Assembly (NCBI RefSeq): GCF_000018305.1
Contig: NC_009954.1
Coordinates: 1,770,001-1,802,000 of the forward strand
Length of the DNA stretch: 32,000 bases
Source: Caldivirga maquilingensis IC-167
Lineage (GTDB): Archaea; Thermoproteota; Thermoprotei; Thermoproteales; Thermocladiaceae
Direction of reading: 5' to 3'
Below the pieces are notes generated by a model, which ran no database searches, was not told the DNA's origin, and saw only the letters and a program-made list of their open reading frames with translations. Numbering within the stretch: position 1 is the first letter of the stretch; each line of letters opens with the position of its first letter. Positions 2,500 to 17,582 of this stretch are shown here, piece by piece. The translations under genes and the position numbers were made by a program.

Positions 2500-2567
2500 G
2501 ACTGCGTCTAATGCCGTGCTTTTTAAATGTTGCTTTACTGCTATACGCCTTGGATATATTTATTTAT

Positions 2568-3794
2568 TCACTTGCCATTAAGTCTCTTAGATGCCTTTAA
2601 GATTGCATTAACTCTACTTAACGTAGTTGGGTGACTTAGGAAAACCTGTTTAATTAATGGTGAATGTATTGATGGGTAAGTTACCTTAACTAAAGCAGTG
2701 GCTAATGATTCCTTATAACCCTTGCTTAATGCGTATAAGTCAGCCTTAGTTTCATTAATCCTACTTAATGTAAGTGAGATGACTATAGCCAGTAATGCTA
2801 TTAATGCGTAAGCGGATACTGTTACTAGGGTTAACCCAATCCTTGGTATAACGTATAGCAGCATTACAGCTGAGACCAGGGAGTAGACTACTGATGCCAC
2901 CAATGCCTTATAGGTGTCTTTATTAATTATATGACCTAACTCATGGTGAATCACGGCCCTTAACTCATCTTCATTAAGGCATGCCACTAATTTAGTGCTA
3001 ACCAATATTACCTTATTAATGAGGTTTAGGGATACTGCATTACATTCAGGTGATGGGACTAAGTAAACATTAATGCCTTTAATTAATGGCATTGATATTC
3101 TCTCAACATTAATACTGGTTATCATTGAACCACCTATAGCCCTTAGCCCTGATATTAACAATGTTAATTGACTCTTGCTAATGCTCTTAATTGATGAAGC
3201 ATATGATACTAATCTGGCAAGCGTATCCTCAGGCACATCAATAGGTAACGTTACCACTACCTTAATTATGTTTGAACCATTAACCCTTAACTTAATCATG
3301 CGGAGGAAGGATACATAGGTGTAGGCTATGTTAGTTAATAAGACTTGCGCAATAACCACGGCTAGGGTTAGTAATATACCGTACTTCGTAAGTAGAAGGA
3401 ATATAATTAAGGTTAGTATTGATGAAACAATGAATGATACTGCCGGGTTCATGGTAATTGATGAGGTAGGTCTAGTGGGTATTTTCACGTACTCTTCACC
3501 ATTATCTTTAAATAACATAACAAGCTTCCTACCATTACCAATAACAGTATTCCTTAGCATAATCTTACTGAATTCATCAGCCTTCTTCAAGTCGCCACGT
3601 ATTCTAAGGGATCCATTAGTAATGGCTAAGTAGAATCTAGTGAAGTACGCCTCAATGCTGATATCAGAGTTTAGCGAGTAGATAACATATAGTAAATCAT
3701 TATTATTACCGGTACTTAGGTTTCTCATGATGTCAGATACCTTAATTGAGCCGAGCCTCATTAATGAGTCAAGTAGCTTACTGTACGCACGCAT
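2568..3794 (-). CDS. Peptidase M48 (HtpX-like) membrane zinc metalloprotease with ~120-aa N-terminal soluble extension
   Basis: HExxH motif (IHHELGHII) is followed by the downstream ligand region INETKADLYA. Several TM helices flank the motif. ATG start at 3794. Confidence 0.8.
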   Translation of the reverse strand: MRAYSKLLDSLMRLGSIKVSDIMRNLSTGNNNDLLYVIYSLNSDISIEAYFTRFYLAITNGSLRIRGDLKKADEFSKIMLRNTVIGNGRKLVMLFKDNGEEYVKIPTRPTSSITMNPAVSFIVSSILTLIIFLLLTKYGILLTLAVVIAQVLLTNIAYTYVSFLRMIKLRVNGSNIIKVVVTLPIDVPEDTLARLVSYASSIKSISKSQLTLLISGLRAIGGSMITSINVERISMPLIKGINVYLVPSPECNAVSLNLINKVILVSTKLVACLNEDELRAVIHHELGHIINKDTYKALVASVVYSLVSAVMLLYVIPRIGLTLVTVSAYALIALLAIVISLTLSRINETKADLYALSKGYKESLATALVKVTYPSIHSPLIKQVFLSHPTTLSRVNAILKASKRLNGK

Positions 3795-3851
3795 TCACTA
3801 AGATGCCTACGGGTACCTTTTTAACCTGAACAGTCAAGCATGGTTAACGTG

Positions 3852-3879
3852 ACACTGACGTAATACTGTACGTCAGTGT
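3852..3879. promoter_or_regulatory. Perfect 11-bp inverted repeat (ACACTGACGTA-N6-TACGTCAGTGT) in a divergent promoter region
   Basis: Read directly from the sequence. It lies between TATA-like CTTTTTAA (3817-3824, for the minus-strand M48 gene) and CTATAA (3895-3900, for the plus-strand 3926 gene). Confidence 0.4.
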
Positions 3880-3925
3880 ATTATCACTCAACTGCTATAA
3901 GGGGTTAAGGAGCCCAGGTTAACCT

Positions 3926-4291
3926 ATGGCCAGCGTTAAATTAGTACGAGAAGCTAGAATGAAGGTAACAACCCACAATAAGGTGATGCACATGAAGATG
4001 AACGTGATGATTAAGCTTAAGGAATATGCATCCTCCTCCAAGGGGAACCTAATAACAGTTAGGCCAAGTAAGATAGCCCAGGAAATAAATACTGTGGGAA
4101 GGGTGACAAGGGCTGATGGAGTTGTTATAAGGAATTTCCTAGAGCAGTTGGTTGAGAGGGGTTATATGGAGGTCATTAAGAGGAGCGCCAGGGGTAAGGT
4201 ATATGGAATACGAAAGGGAGGAGAATTCTGGAAGCTCCTCATGTCACATAATCCTGAAGACATACTTGACTTAATCAATATAGAGGAGTAA
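3926..4291 (+). CDS. Small putative winged-helix DNA-binding protein (hypothetical)
   Basis: 121-aa basic ORF with a wHTH-like segment (PSKIAQEINTVGRVTRADGVVIRNFLEQLVERGYMEV...GKVYGI). The start is uncertain because there are several in-frame Met codons. No family was recognised. Confidence 0.45.
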   Translation: MASVKLVREARMKVTTHNKVMHMKMNVMIKLKEYASSSKGNLITVRPSKIAQEINTVGRVTRADGVVIRNFLEQLVERGYMEVIKRSARGKVYGIRKGGEFWKLLMSHNPEDILDLINIEE

Positions 4292-4359
4292 GATGCTGAG
4301 TCTCTAGGCATAAGGCCTGTTTCAAACTTTTTAATGCTGCATTAATAATACTCCTAGAA

Positions 4360-4406
4360 GTGAAGAGGACGGGATGAACTGAAGAGTGATGAGAACCCGG
4401 GCCTGA
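4360..4406 (+). ncRNA. Candidate C/D box sRNA
   Basis: Layout: C-like GUGAAGA (4360-66), 12-nt spacer, D' CUGA (4379-82), 3-nt linker, C' GUGAUGA (4386-92), 10-nt spacer GAACCCGGGC, D CUGA (4403-06). TATA-like ACTTTTTAATG sits about 25 nt upstream. Weak points are the imperfect C box and the 10-nt second spacer. Confidence 0.3.
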
Positions 4407-4574
4407 GACTATTCATAGTGTTGCTGCTTAGTTAGTAATAGTTCAATAATATAAGGTAGGGTTCTTATTTTATACTTATGCTTAAAGAATTAGTAATATA
4501 AATGTTTGGTTAAGTTGTAGAACTAACGAATAAAGCATTAATGTTTAAAAACTCAGCATGCTAAGGTAAACCTA

Positions 4575-11403: not shown

Positions 11404-11616
11404 ATGAGCATTTCAAGTGAGACTGAGCAGAGGGTTGTCTGCCCATACTGTGGCTTAACGGATTGGGTTCTGGTTCAGCCAATTAATAGGAGGGATAGTA
11501 GAGGATTCCTAGTGAGTGTAATGCTTTGCAGATGCAATAACTGTGGAAGAGTATTCTATGTATTTAAGTATAGGTTCAGGAGCATTACATATAAGCTTGA
11601 AAACCTGGCTACTTAA
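11404..11616 (+). CDS. Small zinc-ribbon protein (hypothetical)
   Basis: 70-aa ORF with two CxxC pairs (CPYCG ... CNNCG). Confidence 0.4.
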   Translation: MSISSETEQRVVCPYCGLTDWVLVQPINRRDSRGFLVSVMLCRCNNCGRVFYVFKYRFRSITYKLENLAT

Positions 11617-11728
11617 CATTAATTTAAATGTTTACTGCAGCATGCAATGCATTATTAAGCATGGTTGAAAGAGTTTGGATTAATGTTTTAAGAGTAAGAT
11701 TTATATACATTAACAACGCCAATTACCA

Positions 11729-11953
11729 ATGCCTGAAATACCACTAGCCCCCATAGAGAGGATCTTCAAAAAAGCAGGAGCGGAGAGAGTGGGTGAGGAT
11801 GCTGTTATTGCGTTAAGGGATGTGTTGGAGAACGTTGCCTACGAGGTCTCTGTAAAGAGCATTGAATTAGCGAAGCATGCGGGCAGGAAAACTGTGAGCG
11901 CAGATGATGTTAAGGCTGTTGTAAGGATCTTCAGGTGCATTAACTTATCATGA
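11729..11953 (+). CDS. Archaeal histone (HMf/CBF-NFY histone-fold family)
   Basis: Collinear with the HMfB-type sequence as I recall it: IPLAPIERIFKKAGAERVGEDAVIALRDVLENVAYEVSVKSIELAKHAGRKTVSADDVKAVV. TATA-like TTTATATA lies about 25 nt upstream of the ATG. Confidence 0.9.
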   Translation: MPEIPLAPIERIFKKAGAERVGEDAVIALRDVLENVAYEVSVKSIELAKHAGRKTVSADDVKAVVRIFRCINLS

Positions 11954-12417
11954 GCATTAAAGTACCTTACGTACCGACCCCAACGTCAGTGGCCATGGAG
12001 ATTATTAAGAGGACTAAGCCACGGCCAGGTGAAGTAATTGTTGATGCCGGAGCAGGGGAATGTAATATTGTAATTGAGGCTGCTAGAAGGTTTGAATTAA
12101 TTGGATTAGGCATAGAGAAGGACCCGGTATTAGTTAAGAGGTGCCTTGAGAGGATTAACGCAGAGGGTTTACGTGGAAGGGTTTACGTGGCTTGGGGGGA
12201 TATATTTCAATTCAACTATTCGATAGCAGATATAGTTTACTTATACTTAGGTACTGATGTTAATAAGGAGCTTGCACCCATATTATTCAGCACACTTAAG
12301 AGGGGTGCAAGGGTGGTTTCCCATGACTTTGAGATACCTGGTTATAAGCCCACTGAGGTTGGTTCAGTGAAGGGGCCTTTAAGGGGGCATAAGTATTACC
12401 TATATATTAAAACATAG
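11950..12417 (+). CDS. aKMT-family class I SAM-dependent (protein lysine) methyltransferase
   Basis: 155 aa. Has the N-terminal VPYVPTP motif, SAM motif I VIVDAGAGECNIVIEAA, and C-terminal VVSHDFEIPGYKPTEV...YYLYI. As I recall them, these are the hallmarks of the crenarchaeal aKMT family and its bacterial relatives. The start overlaps the histone stop (ATGA). Confidence 0.7.
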   Translation: MSIKVPYVPTPTSVAMEIIKRTKPRPGEVIVDAGAGECNIVIEAARRFELIGLGIEKDPVLVKRCLERINAEGLRGRVYVAWGDIFQFNYSIADIVYLYLGTDVNKELAPILFSTLKRGARVVSHDFEIPGYKPTEVGSVKGPLRGHKYYLYIKT

Positions 12418-13053
12418 TTAGGCATTATCTTCATTATTGAATTTCGACTCTAGGATTCTCCTAATCATAAGCATGCTTGATGATGATAATCCACTCAGCT
12501 TAATGGGCCATTGCCTATAATTATTCAATGCATTTAATGGTGTTCCATAGATTTTAAGCAATCTAACGGCCCTCCTAATCCCTATTCCCGGTAATGATGA
12601 TAGGAGGGTAATCTGCATATCACTGATTGACTCACTCTTCCTCCTATTACTTATCTTAATTAAGCCAGGTGAAGTTACCGCAAGGGAGTAAAGGGCTTGG
12701 GCAGTATCCCACTCATCTCTAGTCCAAATAAGCCTAAGCCCGCTCCTACTCACCTTAACCAAGGCCCCAATTAATGCATTCCTACTAATACCCCTCACTG
12801 ATACCGTTGACCATAAGTCACCCTCAATGATTATGTAAGGCTCCTGGTAAGCCTCAATTAGGTTACTAGCCTGTTGAAACAACCTACCGTCAATTATTGA
12901 GTTCACGAAATCCATAGCCCTCTTACGCTCCACAGCCACCTCACTTGAAACCACGTAATCCCCAACAGTCAGTGTAGATACCAGGACCCTGCATCCAAGC
13001 TCCTTTACAGCATTAACAACAGCCTGGGCAGTCTCATACTCCCTTGAATCCAC
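12418..13053 (-). CDS. xpf: Short-form XPF/ERCC4 structure-specific endonuclease (nuclease + HhH2 domains)
   Basis: ERCC4 motifs DSRE and LTVGDYVVSSEVAVERKRAMDFVNSIIDGRLFQQ. C-terminal HhH2 region LLSSLPGIGIRRAVRLLKIYGT. The only canonical start is GTG at 13053 (see finding). Confidence 0.85.
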   Translation of the reverse strand: MDSREYETAQAVVNAVKELGCRVLVSTLTVGDYVVSSEVAVERKRAMDFVNSIIDGRLFQQASNLIEAYQEPYIIIEGDLWSTVSVRGISRNALIGALVKVSRSGLRLIWTRDEWDTAQALYSLAVTSPGLIKISNRRKSESISDMQITLLSSLPGIGIRRAVRLLKIYGTPLNALNNYRQWPIKLSGLSSSSMLMIRRILESKFNNEDNA

Positions 13054-13138
13054 GACAATACTGCACCCCAGATTGGATCAGTCTCAATCACCCATGTGGG
13101 TTTAAATAAGTTTAACAATTAGGAATGCTTAATCATGA

Positions 13139-13212
13139 AGCCCCGGCCGGGATTCGAACCCGGGACCTCCTCATTACCAGTGAGGCGCTCCACCAGGCTG
13201 AGCTACCGGGGC
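13139..13212 (-). tRNA. tRNA-Thr (anticodon GGU), copy 1
   Basis: Hand-folded 74-nt cloverleaf. Acceptor GCCCCGG/CCGGGGC, D arm GCTC/GAGC, anticodon stem CCTCA/TGAGG with loop CTGGTAA, T arm CCGGG-TTCGAAT-CCCGG, discriminator U. No encoded CCA. Confidence 0.95.
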
Positions 13213-13235
13213 TTCATGACCTTGCATAGTTAATT

Positions 13236-13243
13236 ATTTTAAA
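13236..13243 (-). promoter_or_regulatory. TATA box (TTTAAAAT on minus strand) for tRNA-Thr copy 1
   Basis: AT-rich box-A-like element 24-31 nt upstream of the tRNA 5' end. Confidence 0.45.
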
Positions 13244-13287
13244 TTTTTCTCCCATTACATACGACTGGTTACGTTAACTAATGTGCA

Positions 13288-15393
13288 TTAACCTGGTGGT
13301 TCAATGATTTCGCTGAAGCAGTTTTCACTAACGTACCCAGCTTCATAATAACCCTGTGGTACTGTGCATTGGCCAATAACGGATGGTTCAATGATCCCAC
13401 TATTAAGTGCAATGCGGTATACGTATGACTCACCCATTAGCTCACCACTGGTGAATTGCGATAAACCAATCCAAGTACCATTGGGGGCTAGTTGAGTGGT
13501 GGGTTTTCCAGTATCGTAAACGTAGTCTGTGTAGAATGTTAAATTACCCCCAGTGATGCTTGGTGGGCAATCATAGACGCCATTGTACTCAGGGGTCTCG
13601 ACAATGAATTGCGCCGCCTGCCAATTAGTGGCCTGGGTTTGGATAGTGATGGTTAAGGGCATGTTGTAAGTGGCCTCCAGGTATGTGCCATTGGGGTAAC
13701 CTATGTACCAGTTAATGTACCATGATTGAGTATTGGATGAAGTGTAGTTGTAGTATGTATCCACGGTTATCGTTGAGTAGGGTACTACTGCATATGGTGC
13801 CGTGTTGATTGGTGTTATTAAGTAGCCTTGGGGTTCATCAGCGTAGAATAATTGATAAGTGAACCCTGAACCCAATGATTGCCAAATCCAACCTGCTTGA
13901 ATATAAGGCTCATACCACTGGTTACCTGGGGATAAACCAATCCAAGCCGCCAAGCCGGGTACACTGTATGTGCATGAAACTGGGGATAACTGTGGTACGG
14001 TTATCCAACTTGTTAAGGCCTCAAAGGTATCGTTACCGTATGGGCTTACTCCACTATCGTATGAAACCACGTACCCAGCCCAGTTACTTGACCCAACACT
14101 AACTGCATTAATCCCCTGCAGCTTCACACTATTCAATGCCTTAATCTCACCCCTGGAGACTAGCCTAATATCAATGTTAACGCTGTAAACGCTGTATGTT
14201 GGATCACTGTTAACGCTATATGTTGATGCTGACCCATTCTTGGAGCCATACATCGTTACGTAGATTAAGCCAACCCTACTGCCACCTGCGTATACGCTGA
14301 ATACCCAATCATAGTATATTGAACCAGTACTAACGTATGTTGGTATTGAACTATTTACCTTAACCCACTGCACCTGGAATCCTAATGCGCTGAGGCTTAA
14401 TTCACCACCATTAATATAATTCCTAACCTCCCGTATTGAATACAGTATGCTTAACACTAGTGCAGTTGCATTACGTACATGCGGCATGAGGAGTTTATTG
14501 GGTTCATCACTGAACCAGAAGAAACCCGGCATTTTAACGCTAATCCCCAGGGGTAGGCATAGGTTACTGTAGGATGTGTTGAGGGTTGGTATGTGAATAC
14601 TACTGCACATGAATTCAACACTATGGAATTCCGTTAAGTAAGTGATCTCTGGGTTTGATATGTTGTAGGAATACTTAATGTACCGTGACTCATTCACGTT
14701 AATGTTAATGATGAGCTTATCATTATTATTAAGCAACACAGCTGGGTGAGTCCTAAGCACGCCAATTATTAACTCACGTTTAATAGTCATATTCAAGTAC
14801 ACGGTATGACTACCTGGGGGTCCGGTGAAGAGGCTTAGATTAACTTCACCGTAGGCTATGTTCTTTAGGGGCTGGTAAATTAGGCATGGTGTTGAGTAGC
14901 TTGGATTAACTATTTCAGTAAACCCATTACTACTCTGCCCTGGTTTACCATTGATTTTGAAGCCGATGCAAGATAGGGTATTATTCCCAATTACCCCCTT
15001 CATTTCAGGAAGCGCGGGTATTAGCCTTGCCTCTACAGCTAATAATGTGTCAAAGGCGTACTGCACCATCGTGGGTTCACTGGTGAATTGCCCAACATAG
15101 GATGAGTTAACACTGTAGGGTAGGCATATTGTTTCATTAAACACGCCTATACTGCTTAAATTTAACGTAATGCACTTAATGATCATTAATGTTGAACCCG
15201 ATGAATTAATAGGCAAGTACCTTACACTGCCCTCAGCTGGTATTGTGACATATGAATTATTAATAATAACCACCAGCTTATATTCACTACCCTCAGCATT
15301 GGGGTGTATTACCAGAAAGGCGAATAAAACCAGTAACGCTATAACTAATGCTACTATAGCGTACCAACCAGGGGTCATAAAATGAGATGCCAT
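13288..15393 (-). CDS. Membrane-anchored, N-glycosylation-sequon-rich extracellular protein with C-terminal peptidase G1 (eqolisin, Pfam Peptidase_A4)-like domain
   Basis: The probable start is ATG at 15393 (MASHFMTPGWY), with TATA-like GTTTATAAGC about 25 nt upstream; the listed TTG at 15411 is unlikely. One N-terminal TM helix and more than 20 NxS/T sequons. The region 13402-14091 carries the collinear G1-peptidase motifs SSNWAGYV, AAWIGL, YIQAGW, AAQFIVETPE and GGNLTF. Confidence 0.6.
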   Translation of the reverse strand: MASHFMTPGWYAIVALVIALLVLFAFLVIHPNAEGSEYKLVVIINNSYVTIPAEGSVRYLPINSSGSTLMIIKCITLNLSSIGVFNETICLPYSVNSSYVGQFTSEPTMVQYAFDTLLAVEARLIPALPEMKGVIGNNTLSCIGFKINGKPGQSSNGFTEIVNPSYSTPCLIYQPLKNIAYGEVNLSLFTGPPGSHTVYLNMTIKRELIIGVLRTHPAVLLNNNDKLIININVNESRYIKYSYNISNPEITYLTEFHSVEFMCSSIHIPTLNTSYSNLCLPLGISVKMPGFFWFSDEPNKLLMPHVRNATALVLSILYSIREVRNYINGGELSLSALGFQVQWVKVNSSIPTYVSTGSIYYDWVFSVYAGGSRVGLIYVTMYGSKNGSASTYSVNSDPTYSVYSVNIDIRLVSRGEIKALNSVKLQGINAVSVGSSNWAGYVVSYDSGVSPYGNDTFEALTSWITVPQLSPVSCTYSVPGLAAWIGLSPGNQWYEPYIQAGWIWQSLGSGFTYQLFYADEPQGYLITPINTAPYAVVPYSTITVDTYYNYTSSNTQSWYINWYIGYPNGTYLEATYNMPLTITIQTQATNWQAAQFIVETPEYNGVYDCPPSITGGNLTFYTDYVYDTGKPTTQLAPNGTWIGLSQFTSGELMGESYVYRIALNSGIIEPSVIGQCTVPQGYYEAGYVSENCFSEIIEPPG

Positions 15394-15600
15394 ATTGAAA
15401 TCACGAACCAATGCTTATAAACTCTTTTCACTATAGAGTCTATTGTGTTTTTATGGATTACTTCCTAGAGTGATACATAGTTTAGTGTAGGCATTGATAA
15501 GGGTTATTCATTTCTAGGATACAGCCGTAATCATACGTTATCAGTAATCATCCTTAATTTTGAGAAATCAGTGAGCTTCATATCCCCAAGGTAAGGTGGT

Positions 15601-17169
15601 TTATTCAGGTGGTATTTCCTTAAATGTGATCATTAAGTCTATACCTTCCCTACGTGCCCTAATGTACCTGGCTACTTCAAATATTATTACTCCAGCTGCG
15701 AATACCGCTATGAAGAATGCGAATATTAGGGCGCTTGTTATTGGGGTAAATAGGTAGACTAGCGGATTGCTTACCTCCATGTAACTTACCCAGGTGAAGT
15801 AACCTGTTAAGTATAGGCCAATTATGGTGATTAACGTATTCCTCCTCTTAACACCATAGGCTACGGCCGTTATCGATAATATTATGAAGTACATTAGTAT
15901 TGTCACCACGGTGCTAATATCCATTGTTGCTGATAACGCTGGTATAACACTGAACACGTACAGGTACATTATGATTAATGATATTGCTAAATCCAAACCA
16001 TGGGCTATTACGGGTGTGTGGGTTCTTGGGTTAACATAGGCTATAAAGCCTGGAAGAATCCTATCGAAGGACATGGCGAATAAGTACCGTGCTATTTGAA
16101 GCACTATGGTGCTCGGTGAGTTAATGTACCATGTGAGGGAGCCTATAGCTATAATCCACTGCATCACCGGGTTCTTAATAAGCAGTATCGCCAGGGCGGG
16201 CGGATACGGTGGTGGCATGTTGCTTGGCCATGATACATTAGGCACTAGGCCATAATATACTGCGAAGGCGCCATTAATGAAGTTTAGGCCTAAACCACCT
16301 ATTGTTGCCCATAATCCAAACCCAACTAATACTGTAATTAGTACATAGGTGCCTATTACGGCTAATGGTACTGTACCCGCTTCCCTCTTAACCTCGCCAC
16401 CTATGGTTATTATGAAGTTGGTGTATGGGAAAATGTAGGCCATGTAGGGTAATAGGGCTATTGTCCCATAGATCACATTACCCTTAGGTAGGCTTAAATC
16501 AGCCTCAATGGCCTTACCATAGAACCCTGGGGCAATACTATTAATTACCGTGGGTAACTCACCTCCATATAGGTAAAGAATAATCATAGTTAATATGAAT
16601 GTTACTGTGGCGATTAGTGATATTGCTGATGAAAGGTACTTACCAGCCTTAACAGATACCATGTTAATCAATATAATCACGGCCAGCATAATGGCACCCA
16701 CTGTGAATATTACCACTGGATTACTAGTCACTAAATTAGCAACATTAACCAATCCCTTATCACCTAAGGAAACGGCTATGGCATATAATGATGGGCCAAG
16801 CGCCGTGGTTAATGCAAAAACCATGGATACTGCATTAAAGAACATTTGATCAACAGTAAACATGAGTAGGCTTGCGAACCCAATCCTAGGCTCAAGGTTA
16901 CGGCTCATGAACACGTAGTCACTGGCTGTCCTATAGTACGTTGAACCAATGAAGTTGATTAAATAGGCCATGGGGGCGAAGGTTATGAAGCCAAGTATCA
17001 ACGCCAGTATTGGATTTCCAAAGGGGAAGTTCACAATACTACTGATTAACAGTAGGTAACCTGACTGGTAAGTAATGTATGCGGTATTCATTAGTAATGC
17101 TGCCAATGGTCCAACCTCTCTAACAAGACCGCTGCTCTGCCTTAGGAATAAATTAGGCTTACCACCCAT
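15601..17169 (-). CDS. APC-superfamily amino acid/polyamine permease
   Basis: 522-aa polytopic membrane protein with about 12-13 TM helices and an N-terminus typical of APC transporters (LRQSSGLVREVGPLAALLMNTAYI). Confidence 0.85.
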   Translation of the reverse strand: MGGKPNLFLRQSSGLVREVGPLAALLMNTAYITYQSGYLLLISSIVNFPFGNPILALILGFITFAPMAYLINFIGSTYYRTASDYVFMSRNLEPRIGFASLLMFTVDQMFFNAVSMVFALTTALGPSLYAIAVSLGDKGLVNVANLVTSNPVVIFTVGAIMLAVIILINMVSVKAGKYLSSAISLIATVTFILTMIILYLYGGELPTVINSIAPGFYGKAIEADLSLPKGNVIYGTIALLPYMAYIFPYTNFIITIGGEVKREAGTVPLAVIGTYVLITVLVGFGLWATIGGLGLNFINGAFAVYYGLVPNVSWPSNMPPPYPPALAILLIKNPVMQWIIAIGSLTWYINSPSTIVLQIARYLFAMSFDRILPGFIAYVNPRTHTPVIAHGLDLAISLIIMYLYVFSVIPALSATMDISTVVTILMYFIILSITAVAYGVKRRNTLITIIGLYLTGYFTWVSYMEVSNPLVYLFTPITSALIFAFFIAVFAAGVIIFEVARYIRARREGIDLMITFKEIPPE

Positions 17170-17471
17170 AGGGACCAGGGGGATAATACTGAACCTTAAG
17201 GTTTACTAAACGTTTAACACTAATACTGTGTCTACGTCTTAGAGATAAAAACCTTAACCTTAGGGTCGGGCTTAGCGTTGGCGTCATTGATACAAATGGC
17301 ACGATACTGAATATGATGCATGTTATCCAAGTGAAGTCATCTGCATAAATGTAATTTACAATTAATGGCCCTGCAATAACACATGCCGTTAGGTGATGGT
17401 TAAACTAAAGTTAATCCTAGTTAATAAAGCATTCATAATCTCCTCTTAATTCACCTTAATCATGTATTTGG

Positions 17472-17545
17472 AGCCCCGGCCGGGATTCGAACCCGGGACC
17501 TCCTCATTACCAGTGAGGCGCTCCACCAGGCTGAGCTACCGGGGC
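17472..17545 (-). tRNA. tRNA-Thr (anticodon GGU), copy 2 (identical to copy 1)
   Basis: Same 74-nt sequence as 13139-13212. Confidence 0.95.
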
Positions 17546-17572
17546 TTCATGACCTTGCATAGTTAATGCTTG

Positions 17573-17582
17573 TATTTTTTAA
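17573..17582 (-). promoter_or_regulatory. TATA box (TTAAAAAATA on minus strand) for tRNA-Thr copy 2
   Basis: Lies 28-37 nt upstream of the tRNA 5' end. The same AAAAACTTAAAAAATA string also precedes tRNA-Ile at 25338-25353. Confidence 0.45.

Follow-up and report, generated by a model that had tools for sequence, protein, structure and literature searches.

An aKMT-family methyltransferase paralogue linked to the histone gene in Caldivirga maquilingensis and related Thermoproteales

Does Caldivirga maquilingensis IC-167 possess an enzyme that is dedicated to the methylation of its histone? The question was raised by the initial annotation of a 32,000-nucleotide stretch of its genome (contig NC_009954.1, positions 1,770,001 to 1,802,000; hereafter the window, to whose first base the coordinates refer unless another locus is named), in which the start of a methyltransferase gene lies within the end of a histone gene. 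The pair was interpreted as a dedicated histone/writer operon, with the methyltransferase as a counterpart of the archaeal lysine methyltransferase aKMT. Methyl-lysine has been detected on archaeal histones, including those of methanogens and Asgard archaea, which lack SET-type writers; modifications are scarce and the writer is not known (10.1101/2021.11.30.470311; 10.64898/2026.07.02.735847). The analysis of the locus only partly supports the reading as a dedicated histone-writer operon. Judged by sequence comparison, the methyltransferase is a Thermoproteales-only paralogue of aKMT and not its orthologue, and its linkage to the histone gene is conserved as a neighbourhood, not as an operon.

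The methyltransferase gene (11950..12417, + strand) encodes a class I S-adenosylmethionine (SAM)-dependent enzyme of 155 amino acids (aa), which was assigned to the aKMT family based on homology searches and an AlphaFold model. The three motifs attributed to it initially are all present, namely VPYVPTP (residues 5-11), the SAM-binding loop or motif I DAGAGEC (D32 to C38) and VVSHDFEIPGYKP (residues 122-134). In a phmmer search, residues 5-153 aligned to residues 7-156 of the aKMT of Sulfolobus islandicus (PDB 5fa8/5fad; E=1.6e-26, 96.7 bits). The Salinibacter homologue 5bxy was matched as well, and all families outside the aKMT group reached E=1e-4 or worse in the PDB sequence search. The NCBIfam model NF041081 (protein-lysine methyltransferase) was the top match with 89.3 bits, below its curated cutoff of 200. 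The canonical copies of Thermoproteales also fall below this value (161-164 bits), and the cutoff may be too strict for copies from outside the Sulfolobales; the window methyltransferase still scores far below the canonical ones. The AlphaFold model, built from 14 homologues, had a predicted local distance difference test (pLDDT) score of 93.5. Its best Foldseek matches were 5fad and 5fa8, with a template modelling (TM) score of 0.90 and a root mean square deviation (rmsd) of 1.5-1.9 A, followed by the next family at a TM of 0.78 or lower; superposition on 5fad gave a TM of 0.90 and an rmsd of 1.5 A. Based on sequence and predicted structure, the protein is a member of the aKMT family, and it groups with aKMT and not with RNA or small-molecule methyltransferases.

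Characterised aKMT is a broad-specificity lysine methyltransferase of crenarchaea that acts on Cren7, Sul7d and many other proteins (PMC8927968, PMC4639711, PMC4200833). The window protein shares with the aKMT/aKMT4 of S. islandicus (5FA8, 5FAD, 5JWJ; NF041081) the single-domain seven-beta-strand fold of about 155-160 aa, at 37% identity, and common to both are VPYVPTP, the Asp and first two glycines of motif I, the post-I Glu, N105 and SHDFE. Residues that are invariant over archaeal and bacterial homologues are all kept in the window methyltransferase and its clade: D32, G34, G36, E56, N105, S124-H-D-F-E128, H147 and Y152. G36 is the equivalent of G38 in aKMT4, of which the G38R mutant is inactive (PMC4639711). 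The protein is regarded as a putatively active aKMT-family enzyme because these family-invariant residues, the equivalent of aKMT4 G38 included, are all retained; the roles proposed for the active-site residues rest on their conservation. Differences towards aKMT are found in motif I, which reads DLGCGDG in aKMT and DAGAGEC in the window protein, in three further positions described below, and in distribution, the window paralogue being confined to part of the Thermoproteales.

A second family member, P0244 (ABW01807.1 / WP_012186026.1, 220 aa), is encoded in the C. maquilingensis genome and was found by a search with the second Vulcanisaeta copy followed by a cluster-member look-up. Its score to 5fa8 is 167 bits against 97 bits for the window methyltransferase, and its score to NF041081 is 161 against 89 bits. 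P0244 has the canonical GCGDG in motif I and carries a C-terminal winged-helix domain, which is missing from the window protein. Since this closer copy is present in the same genome, the window gene is not the aKMT orthologue. The proposed aKMT assignment holds at the family level but fails at the orthologue level, and the role of a counterpart to the enzyme acting on Cren7 and Sso7d falls to P0244 as the canonical aKMT, with the window protein as a divergent paralogue.

When one genome per species was scanned, at least nine genomes of Thermoproteales were found to contain two aKMT-family copies. In a neighbour-joining tree, the window methyltransferase grouped with sequences of Caldivirga, Vulcanisaeta and related metagenome-assembled genomes (MAGs), apart from the canonical archaeal aKMTs. 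This paralogue clade was recovered in 136 of 200 bootstrap replicates, and in 142 of 200 when the sister loci L021 and L022 were included. Four positions that are otherwise conserved in canonical aKMT are switched in the clade: Y to V at position 31, directly before the motif I Asp, G to C at position 38 in GxGxG, A to G at position 52 and L to G at position 101 in the YLL motif. The basal clade members L016, L020 and L046 retain GCGDG. The canonical Thermoproteales aKMT (P0244; Vulcanisaeta L069) shares its catalytic domain with the window protein, at about 43% identity, and differs by its length of 220-226 aa, its GCGDG loop, the C-terminal winged helix-turn-helix and the lack of histone linkage. 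The winged helix (PF13412/PF16221) occurs in P0244, L069 (3001-3678) and L100 (3501-4163) and is absent from the Sulfolobus aKMT. It suggests that the canonical copy is a DNA- or chromatin-tethered lysine methyltransferase; the DNA-binding-type domain sits on the canonical paralogue and not on the histone-linked one. In Caldivirga sp. UBA161, the canonical aKMT gene lies 133 nt upstream of the gene for deoxyhypusine synthase.

The histone gene (11729..11953, + strand) encodes 74 aa and was identified by matches to NCBIfam NF043032 (E=1.5e-26, 92.5 bits, cutoff 50) and Pfam PF00808 (E=3e-15, 56.6 bits, threshold 21.4). Alignment with HMfB and HTkB showed a full histone fold with the HAGRKT loop and the AGAERV motif, followed by a short C-terminal extension, RCINLS, with a conserved Cys. 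Extensions of the form (R/K)-C-(I/V)-x-L are common to the histones of this group (here residues 70-74, 11936-11950), and the conserved-Cys tail is absent from HMfB, HTkB and more distant Thermoproteota histones. The Thermocladium histone ends in the same tail as the methyltransferase-linked histones.

As described initially, the histone gene ends within the start codon of the next gene: in the ATGA at 11950..11953 (+ strand, read from the sequence), the first three bases are the methyltransferase start and the TGA is the histone stop. The overlap is kept in all four Caldivirga genomes compared, i.e. the window, L002, L003 and L004. A putative archaeal TATA box, TTTATATA (11700..11707, + strand), was read from the sequence 22-29 nt upstream of the histone ATG. 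L002-L004 carry TTTATAT at equal distance, and a TATA-like element is also present in L005 and L037. The element may act as the promoter, in which case its distance from the ATG would imply a leaderless transcript. The 3'-terminal 40 nt of the histone open reading frame contain no TATA-like element. The sequence AGGTG, found 12 nt upstream of the methyltransferase ATG in the window and in L002, is replaced by AAGTG in L003 and L004. An internal methyltransferase promoter or conserved Shine-Dalgarno sequence within the histone gene was rejected on these two grounds. No structured RNA was found at the locus in an Rfam scan, the only hits in the window being three tRNAs elsewhere, and neither an S-adenosylmethionine decarboxylase (AdoMetDC) gene nor a second histone gene was found in the 32-kb window.

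Conservation of the pair was followed by tblastn on all fetched loci, with the histone, zinc-ribbon, methyltransferase and XPF proteins of the window and a Vulcanisaeta AdoMetDC as queries, and by reciprocal look-ups from histone proteins and from further methyltransferase homologues. A histone gene was found 0-520 bp upstream, on the same strand, in every member of the paralogue clade for which the flanking DNA sufficed (about 26 loci). The ATGA overlap between histone and methyltransferase occurs only in Caldivirga (four of four genomes). Direct adjacency without overlap was found in L005, with a gap of 10 nt, and in the GC-rich MAG L037, with a gap of 63 nt, so that three lineages have the two genes side by side. 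The adjacency is therefore not a peculiarity of a single genome. In L096 the two genes are separated by a spacer of about 400 bp in which no AdoMetDC homologue was detected.

A number of observations weigh against a dedicated histone-methyltransferase operon. In about 19 loci (Vulcanisaeta and other MAGs) the order is zinc-ribbon(+), histone(+), AdoMetDC(-) and methyltransferase(+), the intervening gene encoding an AdoMetDC (PF02675, E=7e-36). As this gene lies on the opposite strand, methyltransferase and histone belong to separate transcription units in those loci. The operonic arrangement is thus restricted to one genus and not clade-wide. The sister loci L021 and L022 have AdoMetDC(-), methyltransferase(+) and XPF(-), and an unrelated gene occupies the position of the histone. 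Thermocladium has XPF, the zinc-ribbon gene and an orthologous histone (72% identity), and neither AdoMetDC nor the methyltransferase was found at its histone locus, to which this search was confined. In the Vulcanisaeta-like MAG L098, the paralogue (2501-3034) overlaps Dph2 (3031-4002) by an ATGA of its own, and the operon partner of the paralogue therefore appears, from the gene order, to change with the lineage. The XPF gene, for which no functional tie is obvious, is equally syntenic, and inherited gene order could explain the linkage. Within the window, approximately 5 of 16 pairs of neighbouring genes on the same strand are separated by at most 2 nt; because of this, the ATGA overlap taken alone lends little support to a functional link. 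The Shine-Dalgarno-like AGGTG is not kept in L003 and L004, the third glycine of motif I is replaced by Cys (C38), which may bear on SAM binding, and no lysine specific to methyltransferase-linked histones was found in the alignment of histones across the loci. The initial proposal of a dedicated operon is supported insofar as the pair is kept beyond one genome; the operon itself is confined to Caldivirga.

With respect to the substrate, the Caldivirga histone offers K54 (in the GRKT loop), K15, K49 and K62 as candidate lysines. A target lysine specific to linked histones was looked for and rejected: K62 is Arg in L090 and L092, which retain the methyltransferase, K43 is variable, and K54 is shared by all archaeal histones. 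Because none of the histone lysines is clade-specific, the histone sequence gives no signal for a dedicated target site. Like aKMT, the methyltransferase has no substrate-recognition domain. More distant histones (60-65% identity) adjoin ribosomal protein S17e, and no methyltransferase is encoded nearby.

The explanation that we favour, tentatively and at a level of confidence somewhat short of even, is the following. In Caldivirga, histone and methyltransferase would form one leaderless bicistronic unit, driven by the TATA element upstream of the histone gene, and the methyltransferase would be translated by termination-reinitiation at the ATGA. By homology, the enzyme would be a single-domain seven-beta-strand SAM-dependent protein-lysine methyltransferase, an aKMT paralogue without the winged helix. 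Comparison of the loci suggests AdoMetDC(-)/methyltransferase(+)/XPF(-) as the ancestral setting of the paralogue; the zinc-ribbon/histone pair would have come to sit just upstream later, and in the Caldivirga lineage AdoMetDC would have left the locus, leaving histone and methyltransferase as an overlapping pair. A derived Caldivirga operon, formed by the departure of AdoMetDC, is the most economical reading of the gene orders. The probable targets of the enzyme are exposed lysines of abundant proteins that bind nucleic acids, on which it would place a single methyl group. Precedent is given by the characterised family members, which are protein-lysine methyltransferases, i.e. aKMT (PMC8927968) and FAM173A/B (PMC9006661). 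The histone would be the leading candidate substrate, because of its presumed co-expression with the methyltransferase in Caldivirga, and probably not the sole one; that it is a real substrate may well be the case, though we would not go so far as to call it probable. It seems unlikely that the paralogue clade represents a dedicated archaeal histone-lysine methyltransferase, which would be the first writer identified for an archaeal histone. Such a writer, translated in Caldivirga from one mRNA with its substrate, would methylate newly made histone before its assembly on DNA, for example at the DNA-contacting K54 or K15. If this were true, the compaction of chromatin would be adjusted to the availability of SAM, and the ancestral pairing with AdoMetDC would likewise be accounted for.

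The main competing explanation, which is quite possible although we do not consider it probable, is that the adjacency is incidental. The zinc-ribbon, histone, AdoMetDC, methyltransferase and XPF genes would then be an inherited block, the paralogue a general or otherwise-targeted lysine methyltransferase, the overlap a product of genome compaction after the loss of AdoMetDC, and the histone not a specific or physiologically meaningful substrate. The opposite-strand gene that intervenes in about 19 loci, the missing histone in L021/L022, the Thermocladium histone locus without the methyltransferase, the co-synteny of XPF without a functional rationale, the coupling to Dph2 in L098, the tight packing common in this genome and the lack of a lysine that tracks the presence of the methyltransferase are all consistent with it, as is the broad specificity of aKMT itself (PMC8927968, PMC4639711). 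However, the outer flanks of the block vary (diphthamide synthase, topoisomerase, phosphoesterase, XPF), yet the distance between histone and methyltransferase does not exceed about 0.5 kb across linked lineages whose methyltransferases are 44-100% identical, and the two genes became direct neighbours in three lineages (Caldivirga, L005 and L037). Moreover, a promiscuous lysine methyltransferase translated from the mRNA of a very abundant lysine-bearing protein would be expected to modify that protein at least partly. It is rather improbable that the true partner of the enzyme lies in SAM/polyamine metabolism, with the divergent AdoMetDC, or in the modification of translation factors, with Dph2 on EF-2 in Vulcanisaeta; examples of such roles would be the sensing or consumption of SAM, or the methylation of a pathway enzyme or factor. 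The divergent pair AdoMetDC(-)/methyltransferase(+), with a gap of about 50-110 bp, is indeed the most widespread arrangement, found in L021/L022 as well, and AdoMetDC recurs near canonical aKMT genes in L034, L044 and L061; for a link to translation factors speak Dph2, which follows the methyltransferase by 8-13 nt (L006, L009) or overlaps it (L098), and the neighbourhood of canonical Caldivirga aKMT and deoxyhypusine synthase. Nevertheless, the methyltransferase persists without AdoMetDC at the locus in Caldivirga, L005, L037 and L096, and the Dph2 association is restricted to Vulcanisaeta-like genomes. To our knowledge no aKMT-family enzyme acts in these pathways, and the methylation of diphthamide is carried out by the unrelated Dph5.

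The remaining two alternatives concern the enzyme itself. Methylation of RNA or a small molecule in place of protein lysine could be suspected from the public annotation as 'putative RNA methylase', from the deposition of the bacterial homologue 5bxy as 'RNA methyltransferase', from weak sub-threshold matches to RrnaAD, CbiT and CMAS, and from the four clade-specific switches at or near the cofactor loop. These names were assigned automatically or in structural genomics, with no assay behind them, and by far the best matches are to the proven lysine methyltransferase aKMT (E=1e-26 vs 1e-4 or worse elsewhere), which makes this option very improbable. Least credible of all is a catalytically dead pseudo-enzyme with a binding role only, e.g. 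as a histone chaperone. The third glycine of motif I, which is Gly in 100% of canonical archaeal and bacterial homologues, is Cys in 86% of clade members, and Val has taken the place of the Tyr that precedes the motif I Asp. Against this, the other family-invariant residues are kept over about 25 diverged sequences, the basal L016, L020 and L046 retain GCGDG, and the confident model superposes on SAM-bound aKMT.

In the literature searched (Caldivirga or Vulcanisaeta together with histone and methyltransferase, and aKMT together with histone), no description of a histone-linked aKMT paralogue was found, in agreement with the initial impression that the arrangement is undescribed. A lineage-specific aKMT paralogue that neighbours the histone gene throughout a family-level clade, and is fused to it in one genus, represents a concrete candidate for an archaeal histone writer. 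The question of such a writer becomes directly testable at low cost, as C. maquilingensis and Vulcanisaeta are cultured and the proteins are small and thermostable; Thermocladium, with the methyltransferase absent from its histone locus, could serve as a natural control. Should the histone prove to be a substrate, the regulated methylation of histones by a Dot1-like seven-beta-strand enzyme would be older than eukaryotes in a second lineage of archaea. Otherwise, the locus is a warning that an ATGA overlap can arise merely by deletion of an intervening gene.

Comparison with known systems shows partial parallels. Dot1/KMT4 (H3K79) is likewise a non-SET seven-beta-strand lysine methyltransferase, acting on the globular histone core, and aKMT4 was described as Dot1-like (PMC4639711). 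The likeness of the window methyltransferase to Dot1 is at the level of the fold: PF08123 was matched with E=0.008, below the Pfam threshold, and Dot1L appeared at rank 39 of the fold search with a TM of 0.65. Dot1 possesses nucleosome-recognition regions, and the likeness does not warrant a homology-based assignment to its family. Human ATPSc-KMT (FAM173B) and ANT-KMT (FAM173A) are distant aKMT homologues, from which it follows that single-substrate lysine methyltransferases can evolve in this family (PMC9006661). They were set beside the window protein by description only, and differ in being eukaryotic, mitochondrial and membrane-anchored, with a pre-methyltransferase domain, and in trimethylating membrane proteins. 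The operonic pair of PrmA and its substrate L11 also combines a small class I lysine methyltransferase with an abundant nucleic-acid-binding protein; PrmA differs by its dedicated substrate-binding domain. The first annotation given to the S. islandicus aKMT was that of an L11 methyltransferase, and the PrmA match of the window protein is marginal (E of about 0.08).

Upstream of the histone gene, a Cys4 zinc-ribbon protein of 70 aa is encoded (11404..11616, + strand), with two CxxC pairs and only sub-threshold Pfam matches to zinc ribbons. In almost every related locus, Thermocladium included, a homologue closely precedes the histone on the same strand; none was detected in L012 by tblastn. 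The family is tiny, with 14 clusters among 1.8 billion representatives. Its members were found in the window and among L006-L020, L082-L084 and L090-L099, those of L016-L020 and L092 having a Lys/Arg-rich C-terminal tail. The zinc-ribbon protein may be a partner of the histone or another substrate of a lysine methyltransferase. On the other side of the methyltransferase, a XPF/ERCC4 nuclease gene (211 aa, 12418..13053, - strand; PF02732 E=3.7e-27, NF040956 E=4e-35) is convergent with it at a gap of 0 nt, and XPF adjoins the block in Caldivirga, Vulcanisaeta, L012, L021/L022, L094, L096 and Thermocladium.

AdoMetDC is divergently paired with the paralogue in most lineages (among L006-L020, L021, L022, L046 and L090-L099), the histone-less sister loci included, and it also lies 1.4-1.8 kb from the canonical aKMT genes of L034, L044 and L061 (MAGs of Culexarchaeia/Methanomethylicia); the association of aKMT and AdoMetDC is thus recurrent. 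The pairing prompted the idea of an aminopropyl-transferase using decarboxylated SAM, which was rejected, as the acidic residue of the glycine loop is also present in aKMT, a proven methyltransferase. In Vulcanisaeta-like genomes, Dph2 (PF01866) follows the paralogue on the same strand, at 3007-3465 / 3474-4514 for paralogue and Dph2 in L006 and 3001-3459 / 3473-4507 in L009. The gene order suggests that the partner in translational coupling differs by lineage.

Further downstream in the window, two copies of tRNA-Thr(GGT) lie inside a 112-nt direct repeat with 95% identity (13136-13247 and 17469-17580, spacing 4333 bp). The repeats bracket the genes of a secreted-looking protein of 707 aa (13288-15411, - strand) and a permease-like protein of 522 aa (15601-17169, - strand). 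No integrase was seen. A segmental duplication may account for the arrangement, as may an insertion at a tRNA gene of which a remnant is left.

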